Position numbers and translations under genes: made by a program. A stretch of 64,000 bases of DNA from Myxococcota bacterium (lineage in GTDB: Bacteria > Myxococcota_C > UBA6777): the NCBI GenBank assembly GCA_023150835.1, contig JAKLKB010000001.1, positions 1 through 64,000 of the forward strand. The letters run 5' to 3'. Shown here in pieces: positions 13,528 to 57,141 of this stretch; positions within the stretch are counted from its first letter, which is position 1; each line of letters starts with the position of its first letter. Below the pieces are notes generated by a model that was not told where the DNA came from, did not search any database, and worked only from the letters and a program-made list of their open reading frames with translations.

Positions 13528-14679
13528 TCAGGGTTGATAAACCCCTTTGAGGATGTGGCCATCGCTCGCGAGAAAGAAGAGATTGTCTTTGTCTGCAAAA
13601 TGAAGCCCCCGTAGTTCAGAGCGTTCCGGCAAAAAGCCTTCTTGGAAATCGAAGCGCTCCCACGAATTGCCTTTGTTGAGGCTGATGTAATAGTACTTCC
13701 GCGAGACGATCGCCATACGATTCGCACCGTCCGAAGAGATGGCGCGCAAGTCATCATCGTTCGAGGGCAGAGGGATTTGTTGATATCGGGTCCACGTTGC
13801 GCCGCCATCCGTTGTCCGATACACCGCTCCTTGCGTGCCCACAGCGTAACCGATCAGTTTGTCTTGCAAGAAATGAATGTCCCGAAGCGTTGGGAGGCTG
13901 CTCTCTTGTTGAAGCACTTTCCACGCCGCTCCGTTGTCTTCGGTCAAAAAGATCCCGCCCTGATCACCCACGACGAAGATCTTCGAACCCACAAGCACCA
14001 TCCCTTCGAGCTGTGCGTTTGTCATCGATGCTCCGACAGCAAGAGGGGACCATGTTTCCCCGCGATCAACGGTTCGATAAAATTGACCCGAGCGACCCGC
14101 CGCGACAGCGACCGTATCGGTGATCCATACGACCGCACGCAGACGAGCGTCTTTTTGGTCTTTTTTGCCCGTCCATACGGATGTCCACGTTCGGCCTGTA
14201 TCTTTTGAAAGCATGATCTGCCCTTGAAAAGGCGTCGCTTCTTCGCCACCTACCGCAAGCACGCGACTTTCTCGAATAGACAGATGTTTCACACTCCCCA
14301 CCAACGCAGGAGGAGCGATATCCAGCCACACCGACTTGTCTTCCGTGAGGAAGATGGACTCACCACCCACGATCTGCACCGCAGAAGTGGACACCATGTG
14401 CGACAAGGCTTTGGCATCGCCCACATTCACGCGGGTGAAAGAATAGGGATATCTTGTATTCGTTTGCTCGGCGTTTTGCTCGATGCTGGTTTCGCTTGTG
14501 GGTTCGGGGATGATCTCACCGCCTTCTGGTCGCCATGTATCGGCTTCTTTGATCACTTCTTCGTCTGGGTTTGGTCCCGGGCAAGCCGCAAAGACGGACA
14601 AAAATGGCAAGGCCGCCAACGCAGCAAAACATAGGGATGTTTGAACAAAGCGACGCCAGTTGAATTGTTGTGCAACCAT
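13528..14679 (-). CDS. Secreted BNR/YCF48-type beta-propeller protein
   Basis: Signal peptide plus Asp-box repeats (SKDTGRTW, TVDRGETW, TEDNGAAW, TTDGGATW). Confidence 0.85.
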   Translation of the reverse strand: MVAQQFNWRRFVQTSLCFAALAALPFLSVFAACPGPNPDEEVIKEADTWRPEGGEIIPEPTSETSIEQNAEQTNTRYPYSFTRVNVGDAKALSHMVSTSAVQIVGGESIFLTEDKSVWLDIAPPALVGSVKHLSIRESRVLAVGGEEATPFQGQIMLSKDTGRTWTSVWTGKKDQKDARLRAVVWITDTVAVAAGRSGQFYRTVDRGETWSPLAVGASMTNAQLEGMVLVGSKIFVVGDQGGIFLTEDNGAAWKVLQQESSLPTLRDIHFLQDKLIGYAVGTQGAVYRTTDGGATWTRYQQIPLPSNDDDLRAISSDGANRMAIVSRKYYYISLNKGNSWERFDFQEGFLPERSELRGLHFADKDNLFFLASDGHILKGVYQP

Positions 14680-14727
14680 GCAAAAAATTCTCCTTTTTTT
14701 ATACGCAAAACAAGCAAGAGTCTTGGC

Positions 14728-15972
14728 TTACCATCCCGAACCCATCCACGGCACACACCGCCCATGGCCATCACAACGCGTCTCTTTGGCGCATACCGAA
14801 ACACAGCGTCTGAGGCGTGCGTCAAACCGCATACAACGTATCTGCAAACAAACTTGCCCATGCACACAGCGCCCTTGCACGCACCGCTGGTTCTCAAAGC
14901 AAAGGGGTACACAGCGCTTTTGTCGGACATCATAACGCAAGCACTGCGTCCGTGGGCAACGCACCCTCAGCGGCAAACAACGCCCTTCTCCATCACAGCG
15001 CGTATGAGCAGGGCAGATCACGGTACATCGGTTTTGTTGTTTGTCGAGGTGCGAACAGTCTTGCCAACGACACAAGAGAGGCGGCGAACGTCTCAATGGA
15101 GCGATGGCAGGCGATAAAGGGCGCAATGTCGGCGGCGTAGAGGGATTTGTCGAAGTGGAGGGGTTAGTCGAAGTGGAAGGATCGGTCGAAGTGGAGGGGT
15201 TAGTCGAAGTGGAAGGATTTGTCGAAGTGGAAGGATTTGTCGAAGTGGAAGGATTTGTCGAAGTGGAAGGATTTGTCGAAGTGGAGGGATTTGTCGAAGT
15301 GGAGGGGTTGGTCGAAGTGGAGGGGTTGGTCGGAGATTCAACCGGGGTCCCAAGACGTGGGGGAGAGCGTCGGGTTGCGCCGAGACGTCGGCAACGCCCC
15401 AACGTGCAGCGAGTTCCGTTTTGGCAGTGCGAGCGACAAAGTCGCAAGGTCGGATCCCATCGCAAACATTCGGCTGGATCGCATAGAAGCGCGCCGCTTC
15501 CTTCGGTGCATCGGTCTTCTGCGCACTTAAGTGAGCAGCACTCTTGAGCTCGTGAGCATCTTTCCCCTGTGGAGCGGCACGAACCACCACAGCGGCTTTC
15601 TGTGCAATGCGCCTGACAGCACTCGCTGCCTTGTGTGCAGGGGTATCCTTCGGGGCGACAAAACGCCGTACAGATGCCTTTTCGGCACGAAAGCTCTCCG
15701 CAGCAAGGTTGGTTGGGCTTGCACGTTTTCCCTTCGGCGCGGCACAGCGGAGCGCTAGATGCGTTGTATGTTCCCATCCACGCTCCCAACAACCATATCG
15801 CAAACAGGGCGCGTAGGATCGCCTGCGCTCTCCATCTGTTCGAAGATTTTGCAACATAAGTTTTGTGGATGCGCCCCCTCCCGTCGATGTGTGCTGACAT
15901 CGACCGCCCGCACGGAAAATCAGCACGCATCGGTCCGAAAATTTTGTGGGTTTGCGCCTTCTGCGTCTGCAT
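14728..15972 (-). CDS. Secreted Cys-rich protein with an (STNPST)n linker; start uncertain
   Basis: CR..G..C.....CC repeats, C.RFD.RLR.C modules and a signal-like hydrophobic segment. Confidence 0.75.
   Translation of the reverse strand: MQTQKAQTHKIFGPMRADFPCGRSMSAHIDGRGRIHKTYVAKSSNRWRAQAILRALFAIWLLGAWMGTYNASSAPLCRAEGKTCKPNQPCCGELSCRKGICTAFCRPEGYPCTQGSECCQAHCTESRCGGSCRSTGERCSRAQECCSLKCAEDRCTEGSGALLCDPAECLRWDPTLRLCRSHCQNGTRCTLGRCRRLGATRRSPPRLGTPVESPTNPSTSTNPSTSTNPSTSTNPSTSTNPSTSTNPSTSTNPSTSTNPSTSTDPSTSTNPSTSTNPSTPPTLRPLSPAIAPLRRSPPLLCRWQDCSHLDKQQNRCTVICPAHTRCDGEGRCLPLRVRCPRTQCLRYDVRQKRCVPLCFENQRCVQGRCVHGQVCLQIRCMRFDARLRRCVSVCAKETRCDGHGRCVPWMGSGW
15136..15333 (-). repeat. 18-bp tandem repeat, ~11 copies
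   Basis: GTCGAAGTGGARGGRTTN units on the + strand. Confidence 0.9.
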
Positions 15973-23699: not shown

Positions 23700-23812
23700 T
23701 ACGAGATCCGCCCATTGTGTGATCATAAAAGCGTAGGGGCAGACAGGTGTGGCTGCCCAACAATCGGGCCTCTACGCACTCTCCTACGATCACACATCAT
23801 TTGGATATCGTA
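23700..23812. repeat. Family A repeat copy
   Basis: TACGAGATCCG...GTGTGATCATA...GTAGGGGCAG...TACGATCACAC...GGATATCGTA. Confidence 0.9.
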
Positions 23813-23863
23813 TGATTTGCGTTTTTCGTGCGCTTCTGGCAATCTGCCGGAAGTGCGCTTCTT

Positions 23864-23974
23864 GGATGGGTCGTCTAGTGGTAGGACACCGGAAACAAGC
23901 GTGCTTTGTACAAAGCACCACAGCAACACCAAAAACTCACGCCGGTAACGGAGGTTCGATTCCTTCCCTGTCCG
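23864..23974 (+). ncRNA. tRNA-like RNA 1 (Glu-like body) with its anticodon loop expanded by a hairpin + CACAGCAA insert
   Basis: Acceptor GGATGGG/CCTGTCC, D arm GTCTAGTGGTAGGAC, stem CCGG/CCGG, T arm GGAGG-TTCGATT-CCTTC. Insert hairpin GTGCTTTGTACAAAGCAC at 23901-23918. Confidence 0.85.
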
Positions 23975-24041
23975 TTTTTCAAAGAGTCGCGTTGCCTTGT
24001 TTCCGCATTCTTCGCTGTTTGCGCGGGTGTGGAAACACGAT

Positions 24042-24149
24042 GGAGAAGTAGCTCAGTTGGTAGAGCAATGATCATGTGTGTCTTGTACAAGACACCACAG
24101 CAAACCTTTTGGCATTCATGGGTCGCGGGTTCGAACCCCGCCTTCTCCA
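24042..24149 (+). ncRNA. tRNA-like RNA 2 with the same type of anticodon-arm insert
   Basis: Acceptor GGAGAAG/CTTCTCC, D arm GCTCAGTTGGTAGAGC, stem ATGA/TCAT, T arm GCGGG-TTCGAAC-CCCGC. Insert hairpin GTGTCTTGTACAAGACAC at 24078-24095, then CACAGCAA. Confidence 0.85.
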
Positions 24150-24258
24150 CATCGTTTTTTTCCCGCTGTTCTCGCCTGTATCACCACCTTTACGACACCT
24201 TCGCCCTCCCCGTGTGATCGCGCTCCCCACATCATCGCCCTTCTCTCAGGCTCGTCGA

Positions 24259-50309: not shown

Positions 50310-53300
50310 ATGAGATTAAAAAAGAAACAGCACCGATCGCACCCTTCTTTTTTTCTAAAGCGTATCCTCTTTTTTGGGATCTTGGTTTCTTGTAGCACAC
50401 CCTTCGCTTGCTCGAAACTGTCTCCCGAGCCCAAAACCGCCGTGCCCACAGCCAAACCCGCCGCAATGAAACGAGCGAAACGATCCGCCTCCGACGAGGA
50501 CTCCATGCACTTAGAAGCGCGGCGCTCACGACGCTCTGCCGATGGCAGCAGCTTATCCTCCGCAGATCAGCGTTCACAGCGGGCTGCTGCGGAAGAGGCT
50601 CCAAGCCCGGGCGCGATCCCCGCACCCAGTCCCGCTAGAGCGAAAAGAAGAAAAGGCGGCGCAAAAGAAAGCACCACGACCAAAACCCCCAAAAAAGACG
50701 CGCCAAAAGATCCTCAAAAAGCCCAAGTCTGGCAGCGAACCGCCAAAGGCACTGTCCTGTCCAAAGTCTCTGTAGGGGGCGGCAGCTTCCTTCAACTCAA
50801 AAAGCTCCGCGTCACCGTACAAGTCGAAGGCTTGCGCGTGCGAACGATCATGGATCATATCTACTACAATCCACACGCGCACACCCTTGAGGGGACATTC
50901 AAGTACACACTGCCAAGCGATGCGTCGGTGTCCTATTATGCGATGTTTGTGGGCAACCAACGCCCTCAAGAACCCCGCTTCTTTTCAGGAAAATTGCCTA
51001 CTCCCCAAGCCATCGCAGCGATGGATCCCCAAGCCATCGCACGCACCAGTCCCAAAGAAGACTGGGGAACCCTTCGAGAAGCTCGTCTTGTGGCAGCGGA
51101 AAAAGGCCGCGAAGTATACGAAGAGATCACGCGCCAAAACATCGATCCTGCGTTGCTCGAACAAGACGCTCCCAACACCTTTTCGGGCCGCGTCTTCCCT
51201 GTCCCTGCCAACGGCCACAACCGCGTGATCATCGCCTACGAACAAACTCTCCCACGCTTCCAAGATCAGCGCGTGTACTCCTTTGCTTTTCCTGACGAAG
51301 TGGCCGGACTGATCGACTTTTCGCTTTCCTACAACCCACAGCTTGCGCAGCTCTCTCGCCATAATCTGCGCAAGATCCGCTGTATGCAAAAACAACAAAA
51401 GCATTTCGTCCGTTGTTTGTGGGAAACCGAAAAGCCTGATCGCAACGCTGATTTCTATTTCCAACCGACCTCGACCAAAGCGGCTTGGGTTGCAGGGATC
51501 GATCCCCTCCAAGATCGTCGCTATCTTTACGCTCAACTCGCGGTCGATCTCCCCCAAAAGAGCGCAAGCAAGGGCGCTTCGCAAGCGGTCTTTTTGCTCG
51601 ATACATCGCTCTCTGAAACGCCCCAACGCTTCGGCGTAAGTGTGTCTCTCCTTGAAAAGATCTTACAAAATAACCCGCAGATCCAGCAATTCAACATCTT
51701 GTTTTTTGATGTGGGGACACGTTGGGCCAAAGCGGACGGCTGGTTAGAAAACACTGCTCAGACACGCGCCGCTGTATTCAAGAAGCTCCGCCGCATCTTG
51801 CTTGAAGGTGCGACCGATCTGAGTGCAGCCCTTGAAGCCCTTGCTTCGGCCCCTTGGCAAGAGGCCACCTCCAAACAAGCGTTGGATATCTTTTTTCTCA
51901 GCGACGGCCAACTCAACTGGGGCAACCGCGATATCCATCAGATCCTTGGCCGCTGGTCCAAACAACAGCGATGGGGTCAAACGCGCTGGTTTGCTTATAG
52001 TTTCGGCCTTGGCAACGAAGACACCACGCTCTACCAACGGCTGACGCGACAAGACGGTGCGGTCTTCACTTGTTTTGGGGAAGCCGAGATCGAGCGTTGT
52101 TCGACAGCCCATACCCATCAAGCGATGTCACTCGACAAGATCGAGATCGAAGGCATCGAAGCGACCGAGATCTTGGTGGCAGGGCGTCAAACCACCCTTT
52201 ACCCCGGGGCTTTGTTGGCTTTTGCAAGTCGCTATCAACGCGATGGCAAGGCGGTGATCACGCTCAAAGGCTCTTTTGACGGCCAACCGATCTCGCTGCC
52301 TTATACGCTCGGCGTGAAAGCACACGGTGATCTCGCTCCCCGCGCATGGGGCGAGATCGCCATCGCTCAACTCGCCGAACTGGATGATCCCAAACTGACG
52401 GATCTGATCGTGGCTTATGCGCAGCACTTTCACATCCCCAATGCCCACTGTTCGCTGTTGGTTCTTGAGACCGACAAAGAGTACAAGCAATACGGACTCG
52501 ATCAACAGCAAAAAGCCCACAAGCTCGATCAGCTGGATCTGTTCATCCGAGATCTTTTTGCCCAAAAAGGCGCACCGATCAGTATGCGTGCGCGTTGGCG
52601 TGCGATATTTCGCAAAGTCCTCCAACGCGCCAAAGCCCTCGATTCGAGCGCAGGACGCGCAGCCCTCGCCTTGCTTCAAGCCGAAGAACAAGCCCACTTT
52701 GCCTTTGAAAGCCCTGTGATGGAGCAGATCTGGACCCAAGGCGACGTACCGAAAGCCTACCTTGCCGATCGCGACAAAAGCGCCGAAAACTTCGATCCCT
52801 TCGTAACCGAAGCCAAGCGCCGACTCAAAAAATCCAAGATCGGCGGAGCGATCCGCAGCTTGTCCTGCATCGTCGAACTGCATCCGTCCAATCCACGGGC
52901 GCTTCGACTTGTCGGATATTATCTGACGGCATGGGAGCGCCCCAAAGATGCGGCGGGTGTCTTCTTGCGCGTCCTCGAACGCCGATCTTTCGAGCCACAC
53001 GCCTTTCGCGATCTTGCACGCACCATGCAAAAGCTCCGACGTTACGCCCTTGCAGCCGCCCTTTACGAAGTCCTGCTTGCTGGGAATTGGCACGAACGCT
53101 TTGGTGAGATCAAAACCATCGCACGCGAAGAATACGCTCTGCTCGCTTATGAGGCCACAAACGCCCAACGTACCAGTGCTTCCGTCAAGGCACTGCTCGA
53201 ACAACGCAAGCCCTTGCTTGGGCTTTCTGTTCCCCAAGCCAGACTGCGCGTCACGCTCACTTGGAACACCGACAACACCGATGTTGATCTCTGGATCTAC

Positions 53301-53600
53301 GAACCCAACGGAGAGACCTGCTCTTACAAAAATCGAAATACCCGCAATGGCGGGGCTTTGCTCCAAGATATCACCCGAGGCTACGGACCCGAACGCTACG
53401 AAAATCGTCAAGGTCCATCCGGTCCCTACAAGCTCCAGCTCCATTTTTATGGCCACCGCTCCAACGTCCTCGGCAACGAGACCCACGCCAGTGTCCTGAT
53501 CGTCCTCAACGCTGGAACCCCCCAACAAGAGATGTTTGAAAAAAACGTCGTCCTCAAAAAACGCGACCAACGCGTCGACGTCACCACCCTCAAACTTTGA
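50310..53600 (+). CDS. VIT + vWA + TPR + DUF2135/YfaP-like lipoprotein
   Basis: LEGTFKYTLP, DPALLEQ, LLDTSLS, SDG, LTWNTDNTDVDLW.EP.GE and DITRGYGPE. Confidence 0.88.
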   Translation: MRLKKKQHRSHPSFFLKRILFFGILVSCSTPFACSKLSPEPKTAVPTAKPAAMKRAKRSASDEDSMHLEARRSRRSADGSSLSSADQRSQRAAAEEAPSPGAIPAPSPARAKRRKGGAKESTTTKTPKKDAPKDPQKAQVWQRTAKGTVLSKVSVGGGSFLQLKKLRVTVQVEGLRVRTIMDHIYYNPHAHTLEGTFKYTLPSDASVSYYAMFVGNQRPQEPRFFSGKLPTPQAIAAMDPQAIARTSPKEDWGTLREARLVAAEKGREVYEEITRQNIDPALLEQDAPNTFSGRVFPVPANGHNRVIIAYEQTLPRFQDQRVYSFAFPDEVAGLIDFSLSYNPQLAQLSRHNLRKIRCMQKQQKHFVRCLWETEKPDRNADFYFQPTSTKAAWVAGIDPLQDRRYLYAQLAVDLPQKSASKGASQAVFLLDTSLSETPQRFGVSVSLLEKILQNNPQIQQFNILFFDVGTRWAKADGWLENTAQTRAAVFKKLRRILLEGATDLSAALEALASAPWQEATSKQALDIFFLSDGQLNWGNRDIHQILGRWSKQQRWGQTRWFAYSFGLGNEDTTLYQRLTRQDGAVFTCFGEAEIERCSTAHTHQAMSLDKIEIEGIEATEILVAGRQTTLYPGALLAFASRYQRDGKAVITLKGSFDGQPISLPYTLGVKAHGDLAPRAWGEIAIAQLAELDDPKLTDLIVAYAQHFHIPNAHCSLLVLETDKEYKQYGLDQQQKAHKLDQLDLFIRDLFAQKGAPISMRARWRAIFRKVLQRAKALDSSAGRAALALLQAEEQAHFAFESPVMEQIWTQGDVPKAYLADRDKSAENFDPFVTEAKRRLKKSKIGGAIRSLSCIVELHPSNPRALRLVGYYLTAWERPKDAAGVFLRVLERRSFEPHAFRDLARTMQKLRRYALAAALYEVLLAGNWHERFGEIKTIAREEYALLAYEATNAQRTSASVKALLEQRKPLLGLSVPQARLRVTLTWNTDNTDVDLWIYEPNGETCSYKNRNTRNGGALLQDITRGYGPERYENRQGPSGPYKLQLHFYGHRSNVLGNETHASVLIVLNAGTPQQEMFEKNVVLKKRDQRVDVTTLKL

Positions 53601-55721: not shown

Positions 55722-55921
55722 CAAGGAACCAAAAAGGAGGTTGTTTCTGATTAACAGTCAGATGCTCTACCCACTGAGCTATGAAGGCTTACGCCTTCAC
55801 TGGGAGTCGAACCCAGGACCCTTTGAGGCCAGTCGCTCTGCCGCTGAGCTACGGAGGTTTTGGGCCTCCGCCGGGACTCGAACCCGGGACCCACTGAAGC
55901 AAAAGTCGTTGATGTTCCTCG
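55722..55921 (-). ncRNA. YrlA/Y-RNA-like structured RNA with two circularly permuted tRNA modules
   Basis: Minus strand, in order: CGAGGAAC; T arm, acceptor hairpin CGGAGG/CCTCCG, D arm; T arm, acceptor hairpin TGAAGGC-GTAA-GCCTTCA, D arm; TCTGA-CTGTTAA-TCAGA; then GTTCCTTG closing the terminal stem. Confidence 0.82.
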
Positions 55922-56043: not shown

Positions 56044-57141
56044 TTATTTGCGAAAGAGGGGGAGGATATCTTGGAAGGCGGCATCGACGGTGCGATCGAC
56101 GGGCAAGATCCGCCGAGGCATCGGCTCGAAAGGAGAAGAAACGGTCTCGACGTGTTGGGGAACATCATGGGAAACAACGGGGAGTTTCCCACGGGATGAG
56201 GAGGATGCGTGATGCGGCGGGGGTGGTGTTCGTTGTTCGTGCGATGGATGGGGTGTGGAGAAAGGGCGTTCGCTCAAGGCCGCGTGTTCGCTCAAGGCCG
56301 TGCGAAGATCGCCTTGGGACGGGTTTTTGTTTGAGGAGAAGGAAGAAGCCGCAGCTTGTTTGTGAGCAAACACAGCACGCAAGGCTTGAAGTTGATCGAA
56401 GTGTTTGACGGCAGCATCAGGATCGCAGAAAGTCGCCATCGGATCGACGTTTTGGATAGCGTTACTTTGGGGGGCGGGGGTAGGCGACTTTTTCAATTCG
56501 TGAGCGAGTTGGCGTAGGCTTGATTCGATGGTTTCTTCGCTGAGGTTTTGAAGGCGATGCGAGGCGGTGGACACAAGCGGCTGAGGGAGAGTCTCTGCAA
56601 AAGGCGGTTGTGGCGACTTGTTGTGTGCAGAAAGGGCTGCAAATTGAGCGCGTTTTTCAGGAGAAAAAGCAACCTGATCACCCGGGAAGATCGGCTTCTC
56701 TTTGGGGACGGGTTGTGTGTCGTCGTGCGAAGGTCCAAAGAAGCCGTCGATCTCCGCGCTGAGATCCCACGAAAGCGAAAGAACCTCTTTGGAAGAAACG
56801 GAAGGAGCGAAGGGACGGGGGGTTTCTTGGAGCAGATCAAGCGGCGGGATCTCTTTGGGTAGCCAAGAGAGTGAAAGCGAGTGTGGATCGTCGATCTTTT
56901 GGGGTGGAGTGTGTTTTTGAGTAAGAGTCTGATCGAGGGCCTGTTTTTGAGCAAGCGTCTGATCGAGTGCCTGTTTTTGGGCGACGGCTTGATCGAGCGC
57001 GGTTTGTAGCTGGAGGATGCGTGCTTCGGCTTGTTGGAGGCGTTGTTGTGCGCGGCGCAGTTGGGAGGTGAGTTGTTCGATATCTTGGGGGAATTCGAGG
57101 GCATTGGGGTTGGGCGTATGGAAGGCATTCATGGCATTCAT
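56044..57141 (-). CDS. Hypothetical protein with N-terminal coiled coil and disordered C-terminus
   Basis: 365-aa ORF with 30-bp QKQALDQT repeats and a purine-rich upstream region. Confidence 0.6.
   Translation of the reverse strand: MNAMNAFHTPNPNALEFPQDIEQLTSQLRRAQQRLQQAEARILQLQTALDQAVAQKQALDQTLAQKQALDQTLTQKHTPPQKIDDPHSLSLSWLPKEIPPLDLLQETPRPFAPSVSSKEVLSLSWDLSAEIDGFFGPSHDDTQPVPKEKPIFPGDQVAFSPEKRAQFAALSAHNKSPQPPFAETLPQPLVSTASHRLQNLSEETIESSLRQLAHELKKSPTPAPQSNAIQNVDPMATFCDPDAAVKHFDQLQALRAVFAHKQAAASSFSSNKNPSQGDLRTALSEHAALSERPFSTPHPSHEQRTPPPPHHASSSSRGKLPVVSHDVPQHVETVSSPFEPMPRRILPVDRTVDAAFQDILPLFRK

Follow-up and report, generated by a model that had tools for sequence, protein, structure and literature searches.

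The stretch of DNA analysed here, referred to as the window, comprises positions 1-64,000 of contig JAKLKB010000001.1 from the Myxococcota bacterium assembly GCA_023150835.1 (genome label G000). Two genes for transfer RNA (tRNA)-shaped RNAs, RNA 1 and RNA 2, lie in it downstream of a gene for a 543-amino-acid (aa) protein with a predicted Ro60 fold, and RNA 1 begins 191 nucleotides (nt) after the stop codon of this gene on the same strand. The features are collected in Table 1, along with a third RNA of the same kind on another contig (RNA 3) and a distinct tRNA-like RNA encoded further along the window. The assembly amounts to 7.56 Mb at 55% GC, is 93% complete, and holds a transfer-messenger RNA (tmRNA) and 62 tRNAs detected by ARAGORN.

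Table 1 Features under study, in window positions unless a contig is named
Feature	Position	Strand	Description
Ro60-fold protein gene, 543 aa	22042-23673	+	DUF2828 N-terminal, DUF7788 vWA-like C-terminal; proposed protein partner of the RNAs
tRNA-shaped RNA 1, 111 nt	23864-23974	+	Rfam tRNA 42.7 bits; minimum free energy (MFE) cloverleaf plus inserted hairpin; orthologue kept in G002
RNA 1, acceptor stem	23864-70 with 23967-73	+	discriminator 23974
RNA 1, D arm	23873-87	+	
RNA 1, outer 'anticodon' stem	23888-92 with 23942-46	+	
RNA 1, T arm	23950-66	+	
RNA 1, module	23899-23926	+	GC flank; 7-bp helix with GUAC loop 23901-23918; CACA bulge 23919-22; GCAA 23923-26; proposed protein-docking helix
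tRNA-shaped RNA 2, 108 nt	24042-24149	+	architecture as RNA 1; Rfam tRNA 55.3 bits; MFE z-score -2.63; orthologue kept in G002
RNA 2, module	24075-24103	+	UGU flank; 7-bp helix with GUAC loop 24078-24095; CACA bulge 24096-99; GCAA 24100-03
RNA 3 (third copy)	C193:28636-28752		other contig; Rfam tRNA 49.5 bits; upstream of prs
Dimeric circularly permuted tRNA-like RNA, ~200 nt	55723-55920	-	two T arms, two loop-closed acceptor stems, one intact anticodon-like arm

tRNA-shaped RNAs with a hairpin module

All three RNAs exceed the gathering score of 29 of the Rfam tRNA model (RF00005), and the MFE folds of RNAs 1 and 2 are cloverleaves in which the hairpin stands as an extra element. Around the anticodon loop, where the tRNA model has 9 positions, RNAs 1 and 2 carry 49 and 44 nt; the helix lies inside the outer 'anticodon' stem, and the motif that trails it is followed by 15-18 unpaired nt without canonical U-turn context. 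ARAGORN in its default mode reported no tRNA in the window, neither RNA 1 nor RNA 2, and its intron mode returned Cys(ACA), Ala(GGC) and Phe(GAA) with odd arms, unrelated and non-canonical readings that were discarded as uninformative. CCA is not encoded by RNA 1 or RNA 2, and is encoded by 6 of the 62 ordinary tRNAs of the genome. A run of T residues follows each RNA, and a promoter and terminator scan near the RNAs gave a single weak promoter-like site (23789-23816) and no canonical terminator.

Between the Ro-like gene and RNA 1 there is also a 108-nt repeat (within 23706-23815, ~50 nt upstream of RNA 1), strongly self-pairing with an MFE z-score of -4.27, which has ~590 BLAST matches genome-wide and resembles a miniature repeat family. 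A spike of RNA-library depth at 23721-23804 (to ~5000 against ~8 in the flanks) was attributed to this genome-wide repeat and rejected as a part of the RNAs.

The original prediction, made from the letters of this stretch, had described two perfect 18-nt palindromes with compensating differences, and this description was borne out to the base. Between the palindrome at 23901-23918 and that at 24078-24095, positions 4-5 change from CT to TC and positions 14-15 from AG to GA; CACAGCAA stands directly 3' of each (23919-23926 and 24096-24103), and the flanks are able to pair across the CACA bulge as GC/GC (23899-23900 with 23923-24) and TGT/GCA (24075-77 with 24100-02). Selection on RNA structure had been proposed from these differences, with covariation among homologues set as the test, and such covariation is present in an alignment (A2) of 12 distinct closed copies, in which a tetraloop joins the two strands: 3 from the source genome, 3 from genome G002 of the same genus, 5 from genome G005 of another genus and 1 from a metagenome contig (L082). 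The 7-bp helix is paired in 100% of the cells, with double-sided changes in four of the seven pairs (8 cells), and its covariation score was reached by none of 500 shuffles; when the partner columns were slid by 1-3, pairing fell to 39-57%. The flanking helix is weaker, being 86% paired with no double changes. These observations support that the module is under selection as an RNA structure. The motif had further been called invariant, which is correct within this genome but not among the relatives, where the bulge reads C-N-C-A followed by GCA and then by A or C (C-N-C-A-G-C-A-[A/C]). Across the 12 copies the loop is GUAC, GUAG or GUAA.

The specific hairpin-plus-motif pattern occurs exactly three times in the genome, each time in a tRNA-like gene. 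Bare CACAGCAA was counted 396 times and RCAC-N2-CAGCAA, the pattern suggested earlier for a search of the genome, 44 times, and therefore neither is diagnostic without the helix. A reversed-pattern control gave 0 matches in one scan and 2 in another (both in G005, at <=2 mismatches). The GTDB family, order, class and phylum of the source all consist of the same six genomes (G000-G005), and among them the module copies number 3 in the source genome, 3 in G002 and 5 in G005, with none in G001 (64% complete), G003 (86%) or G004 (93%). Across 185,579 species genomes (one each), the strict pattern with a fully paired helix in tRNA context was met only in records matching G002 and G005, with 8 such matches in 4 of the 30 stretches listed; 3 more stretches were fully paired in unrelated contexts and the rest were unpaired. 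A third lineage is represented by the metagenome copy, whose contig ends after a tRNA-like 5' half with the module in its closed form. A normal tRNA upstream of prs, as an uninterrupted orthologue of RNA 3, was not found in G001 or G003-G005.

In G005, copy a runs from the acceptor 5' strand through the D arm and the helix with its motif to an anticodon arm that lies 3' of the module and is complete, of Lys(UUU) type, and then through the T arm to the acceptor 3' strand. Copy b (L003 ~1900-2060; G005:C41) has the module, D arm, T arm and a Lys-type loop with acceptor strands that are not complementary, and may be decayed or differently paired.

The Ro60-like protein and its neighbouring RNAs

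The gene upstream of RNA 1 is listed with a TTG start, and its true start is maybe ~17 codons downstream. In Pfam, its 543-aa product matched PF11443 (DUF2828; E 2.2e-11) and PF25043 (DUF7788; E 1.1e-20), with no others at E<=0.001; NCBIfam gave no match for it, and PHROG 850 matched it at E 3e-62. The label of this PHROGs family, 'RNA-binding protein', was already known. An AlphaFold2 model from 33 homologues reached a predicted local distance difference test (pLDDT) score of 88.6, and the top Foldseek matches to it were Ro60 entries at E 1.2e-8 to 3.6e-6, comprising Xenopus and human Ro60, 'Trove domain', Thermus-phage Ro60 and Deinococcus Rsr. By VIA-align, residues 27-511 of the model were superposed on residues 14-537 of 1yvp_A with a Z of 24.3 and a root-mean-square deviation of 3.9 A over 420 residues at ~12% identity. 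Ten Ro60/TROVE entries spanned Z 24.3-12.8 in the VIA comparison (Rsr 12.8), all of them above the vWA-only chains (Z <=11.1). D334, S336 and S338 in the vWA part are invariant across the 33 homologues, and their D-x-S-x-S spacing is what we take to be a metal ion-dependent adhesion site (MIDAS) signature. As modelled, the DUF2828 plus DUF7788 protein has the Ro60 fold, a helical-repeat ring followed by a vWA part.

The family is large. A word-indexed search yielded 1458 proteins at E<=1e-3 among 8000 candidates, an exhaustive hidden Markov model search 5257 clusters at 50% identity and E<=1e-3, and 210 relatives were found on viral contigs, many of them on contigs of 100-400 kb.

A homologous gene immediately precedes a pair of RNAs in G002 (94% identity) and an array of four in G005 (70% identity); the RNAs immediately downstream of the gene thus number 2, 2 and 4 in G000, G002 and G005, with one more elsewhere in each genome. 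The homologous gene was not found in G001, G003 and G004, the genomes that also have no module RNAs, so that gene and RNAs are both present in three of the six genomes of the phylum and both absent in the other three. This co-occurrence is only suggestive of a link, because the genomes are kin and some are incomplete.

More distant neighbourhoods, reaching from 350 nt before the gene to 800 nt past it, were scanned for a module defined as 7 nt followed by NNCAGCA, with a 7-nt partner lying either 4 nt upstream ('closed') or 50-135 nt downstream ('permuted', with <=1 G-U). In 80 metagenome loci (42-94% protein identity), 43 sense modules were found against 1 antisense module, and in 80 viral loci (28-57% protein identity) 49 against 1, this contrast of strands being the only test, as the scan selects for pairing by construction. 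Sense modules were present in 21 of the metagenome and 24 of the viral loci, and in the latter they persist down to 28-32% protein identity. A looser scan with spans <=300 nt had a high background and was replaced by this stricter one. The family profile gave none at E<=1e-40 on 401 Bacteroidia genomes, a result that is uninformative for the linkage. As separate observations, permuted modules were noted just upstream of the DUF2828 gene in L100, L105 and L109, and in the metagenome loci L099, L100, L101 and L105, a clade of 49-51% identity lying within tRNA arrays, the DUF2828 gene is followed by one for an ordinary tRNA-Gln(CUG).

At the related loci, the 5' and 3' ends of an RNA of ~55-130 nt pair to make the helix, and such RNAs often stand in tandem arrays of 2-4. 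In the longer ones, the order of elements is the motif, sometimes an anticodon-arm-like hairpin, the T arm, a loop-closed acceptor-like stem, the D arm and the returning helix strand, which is a circularly permuted tRNA, as in the YrlA Y RNA architecture set out in the portions used of PMC4201824. At the gathering threshold, Rfam found only 3 tRNAs in 16 related loci. Relaxed scans were applied to loci picked for having modules, 14 of 80 from the metagenomes and 15 of 80 from the viral set. The YrlA model (RF02553) gave 3 matches in 3 of the 14 metagenome loci (E<=0.1) and 7 in 7 of the 15 viral loci (E<=1), with scores of 29-45 bits against a gathering score of 69, and the Dictyostelium Class I RNA model (RF01414) gave 2 matches in 2 of the 14 and 6 in 4 of the 15, among the short RNAs, with 29-37 bits against 41.5. 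Such sub-threshold matches are mostly chance in general, and the weight of these lies in their repeated strand-specific position beside one gene family, all of them being on the strand of the gene. Among the viral contigs with a DUF2828 gene, further RNA matches lie nearby at 4278-4620 of L243 and at 1311-1398 and 3169-3537 of L229; these include a tmRNA match above gathering in L243 (68.2 bits), a weaker one in L229 and, near the DUF2828 gene, a RAGATH-1 hammerhead match of 49 bits against a threshold of 56.3.

The portions of Chen et al. (2014, PMC4201824) relied upon here describe YrlA RNAs as tRNA mimics encoded beside Ro60 genes, with that of M. smegmatis cut by RNase P and given CCA, and quote the Ro-binding motif as GNCGAAN0-1G. 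The locus in the window is alike in that a ring-plus-vWA protein of Ro60 fold, as predicted, is encoded next to small RNAs on the same strand, and in that its RNAs, as YrlA, combine a motif-bearing conserved helix with a tRNA-like module of T arm, D arm and acceptor stem; the weak YrlA matches come from the tRNA-like cores of the related loci and from 55764-55895 of the window. In contrast to Ro60, the protein lies outside Pfam TROVE and is only ~12% identical. The topology is likewise inverted in comparison with YrlA, the docking helix of the window RNAs being loop-closed and their acceptor stem open with a discriminator base, while ends in a protein-binding stem together with a closed acceptor stem are absent from RNAs 1 and 2 and present in the 55.7-kb RNA and at many related loci.

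Class I RNAs are, in the sections drawn upon from Kjellin et al. (2021, PMC7919456), RNAs of 42-65 nt whose ends pair in a short stem, with a conserved motif of 11 nt next to its 5' strand, and are reported there as not found outside Dictyostelia. A pull-down with a Class I RNA is described, in the part consulted of 10.1101/2020.04.05.026054, as recovering GuaB, NdkC, the RRM protein CIBP/Rnp1A and DDB_G0281243, a protein of unknown function. The likeness here is that short RNAs beside DUF2828-family genes match RF01414 below threshold, and that in the consensus of this model a terminal stem precedes a motif with CAGCAA at its end. The window motif corresponds to it in sequence and in position relative to the helix strand, but the window helix is loop-closed, and the RF01414 model is unable to match the window RNAs because they are permuted. 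On the other hand, Class I RNAs are eukaryotic, 42-65 nt long and not tRNA-like, and the direct binder reported in the source parts cited is the RRM protein Rnp1A.

Proposed partner RNAs of a Ro60-like protein and the alternatives

In our assessment, the window genes are likely to encode tRNA-shaped non-coding RNAs that partner the upstream Ro60-like protein, as YrlA-type Y RNAs partner Ro60/Rsr. The 7-bp helix, the CNCA bulge and the GCA(A) that follows would constitute a conserved protein-docking module. In most other neighbourhoods of the family, this docking helix would be built from the 5' and 3' ends of the RNA, enclosing a tRNA-like body whose acceptor stem is closed, and the present lineage would be circularly permuted, with a GUAC/GUAG tetraloop capping the docking helix and the RNA ends placed in the acceptor stem. 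The window RNAs are read as circular permutations of Y-RNA-like tRNA mimics because the helices of related loci join the RNA ends around a tRNA-like or short body, and the elements of G005 copy a follow one another exactly as a circular permutation of the permuted form would require. It is because of this topology that the window genes would look like tRNAs with a 44-49-nt 'intron'.

The original prediction of a protein-binding bulged helix, resembling the Ro-binding helix of Y RNAs, seems apt for a candidate site given the adjoining gene for a Ro60-fold protein and the recurrence of the module in two independent collections, and the insert of hairpin plus CACAGCAA is probably a docking helix rather than a tRNA intron. 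By analogy with YrlA and with tRNAs, the Ro60-like protein would bind the 7-bp helix of the module, the RNAs may be matured in the manner of tRNAs by RNase P, 3' trimming and CCA addition, and the tRNA-like body could tether or gate the protein towards factors of tRNA handling or RNA repair, as has been proposed for YrlA. The open acceptor end of YrlA is made post-transcriptionally by RNase P and CCA addition, according to the passages drawn from PMC4201824, whereas in the window RNAs the open end is encoded directly. It had also been suggested that the module was grafted into real tRNA genes; this and a re-permuted Y-like tRNA mimic amount to the same topology and are indistinguishable here. 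As regards a former tRNA-Glu as the origin of RNA 1, similarity to the 62 tRNAs of the genome gives no isotype, the best matches being His and then Glu at low and indecisive scores.

Several observations weigh against the partnership or its likeness to Ro/Y-RNA particles, in addition to the pairing built into the module scan. Pfam TROVE (PF05731) does not match the protein at E<=0.001 and matches nothing in the whole genome at E<=0.01, and the family profile found no Ro60 chain at E<=10 among PDB sequences; since sequence methods give no similarity, the relationship to Ro60 rests on the predicted fold. The YrlA model has no match to RNAs 1 and 2 at E<=1, and the motif of the window lineage is CNCAGCA(A) and not GNCGAAN0-1G. 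The strict module was found in none of 59 of the 80 metagenome and 56 of the 80 viral loci, where many contigs are short and the remaining loci may use variants. RNA 3 is remote from the Ro-like gene. The source genome has no separate genes for Glu(CUC), Gln(CUG) and Lys(CUU), which would favour a decoding function with or without splicing, as would the full Lys(UUU) arm kept 3' of the module in G005 copy a and the perfect Lys-type loops of some G005 copies.

Functional tRNAs, decoding or at least aminoacylated, in which the hairpin is kept as an unspliced extra arm through which the Ro-like protein regulates or protects them, would account for the intact 7-bp acceptor stem, discriminator base and D and T arms, and for RNA 3 upstream of prs, a position common for tRNAs. 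We nevertheless regard this as doubtful. The helix of the window RNAs sits inside the anticodon loop with 15-18 unpaired nt and no canonical U-turn context, G005 copy b has no complementary acceptor stem, and charging is impossible for the permuted relatives, whose acceptor stems are closed. Were the RNAs instead genuine tRNA genes with a new short bacterial intron, the protein-recognised hairpin would be excised and the halves rejoined, e.g. by RtcB, to give decoding tRNAs. The bodies of RNAs 1-3 do score as tRNA, RtcB is encoded in the genome (as it is in many bacteria), CUC-A-C-G stands immediately 5' of, and in register with, the 3' stem strand of RNA 1, and an insert of 44-49 nt in the anticodon region of a tRNA-scoring gene recalls the bulge-helix-bulge introns of archaea and eukaryotes and the group I introns of bacteria. 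However, the insert lies 5' of the anticodon-like triplet, no Rfam intron or ribozyme family, group I included, matches RNAs 1 and 2, and the tRNA-intron endonuclease PF01974 has 0 matches in the 93% complete genome, with the control matched in 4 archaea. When all possible single excisions in the stretch from the D to the T stem were enumerated against a target of a 5-bp stem, a 7-nt loop, U33 and R37, one excision gave canonical arms in G005 copies a, c, d and e, whereas none of the six RNAs of G000 and G002 attained the target and only the RNA 2 orthologues reached a solution with 4 of 5 pairs. Furthermore, the same helix and motif form the ends of RNAs beside homologous genes that are not tRNA-shaped.

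RNA-library contigs from 4 runs in three studies carry the insert and none is joined across it, although at a depth of only 2-8 this is weak, and such contigs cannot show ends, level or rare forms and may include DNA carry-over. Record 7 of X14 spans 23762-24230 with 0 differences, and the insert is also present in X16 (records 15-16), X17 (record 18) and X19 (records 20-21); the records with 'letters between' proved to be ordinary tRNAs of other organisms. Because there is no canonical excision in the window RNAs, no splicing endonuclease and only insert-bearing RNA contigs, splicing is distinctly unlikely, in keeping with the original prediction, which had set an intron aside. Still further from the evidence, and in our view very improbable, is a small mobile or repeat insertion that turned tRNA genes into pseudogenes: palindromic inserts are typical of miniature mobile elements and a different repeat, that of 108 nt, lies only 50 nt upstream, yet there are only three copies per genome, all at the same place in tRNA-like genes; the copies persist from one genus to another through compensatory changes, their tRNA arms remain intact, and they are tied strictly, and in a strand-specific manner, to a single protein family.

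Taken as partner RNAs of the Ro60-like protein, the window RNAs would belong to a relative of the Ro/Y-RNA particle that is apparently undescribed, and which differs from the classical family in its TROVE-invisible protein family, another RNA motif and an inverted RNA topology. A literature search on RNA partners of DUF2828 found no paper; the search was not exhaustive and an earlier mention is possible. A large family of unknown function would thereby gain a testable role, as an RNA-binding Ro-like particle, along with a candidate RNA ligand. Y-RNA-like tRNA mimics would be possible in both circular permutations, which would explain genes that annotators would call intron-containing or pseudo-tRNAs, or miss.

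A broader proposal, which we offer tentatively and consider possible rather than probable, joins these lines: DUF2828/DUF7788 proteins would be a second large family of Ro60-like ribonucleoproteins in bacteria, many phages and eukaryotes, with partner RNAs that share a terminal helix followed by NNCAGCAA, the Dictyostelium Class I RNAs would be its eukaryotic members with DDB_G0281243 as candidate DUF2828 partner, and the present lineage would have been re-permuted to true tRNA topology. If so, the RNA of this lineage could undergo maturation and CCA addition, and perhaps charging, in the way a tRNA does, and the Class I RNAs, abundant and functionally unexplained since 2004, would be offered a protein partner and an ancestry.

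A second tRNA-like locus and side observations

The dimeric tRNA-like RNA on the minus strand of the window has, in its MFE fold, a terminal 7-8-bp helix (55914-20 with 55723-29) followed by a variant of the motif, AUCA-ACGA. The YrlA model matched it below threshold at 55831-55895 (35.8 bits) and 55764-55820 (32 bits), against the gathering score of 69. The locus is kept in G002 (96%) and in G001 (75%), and in the latter there are compensatory changes in both closed acceptor stems. Tentatively, this RNA may be a further partner with a variant motif, because the DUF2828 gene is the only gene for a Ro fold found in the genome. A 365-aa open reading frame upstream of it (56044-57141) has no informative match and belongs to no known family.

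The window that contains the Ro-like gene also encodes, at 50310-53600 (+), a VIT-domain (vault protein inter-alpha-trypsin) protein of 1096 aa. Elsewhere in the source genome, contig C34 carries a dense one-strand array of 12 tRNA genes at 14045-15662. ARAGORN also listed two selenocysteine (SeC) tRNAs and over-long tRNAs for Cys (92 nt), Ile (89 nt), Arg (95 nt) and His (81 nt), and some of these over-long tRNAs could be further unusual tRNA-like genes.

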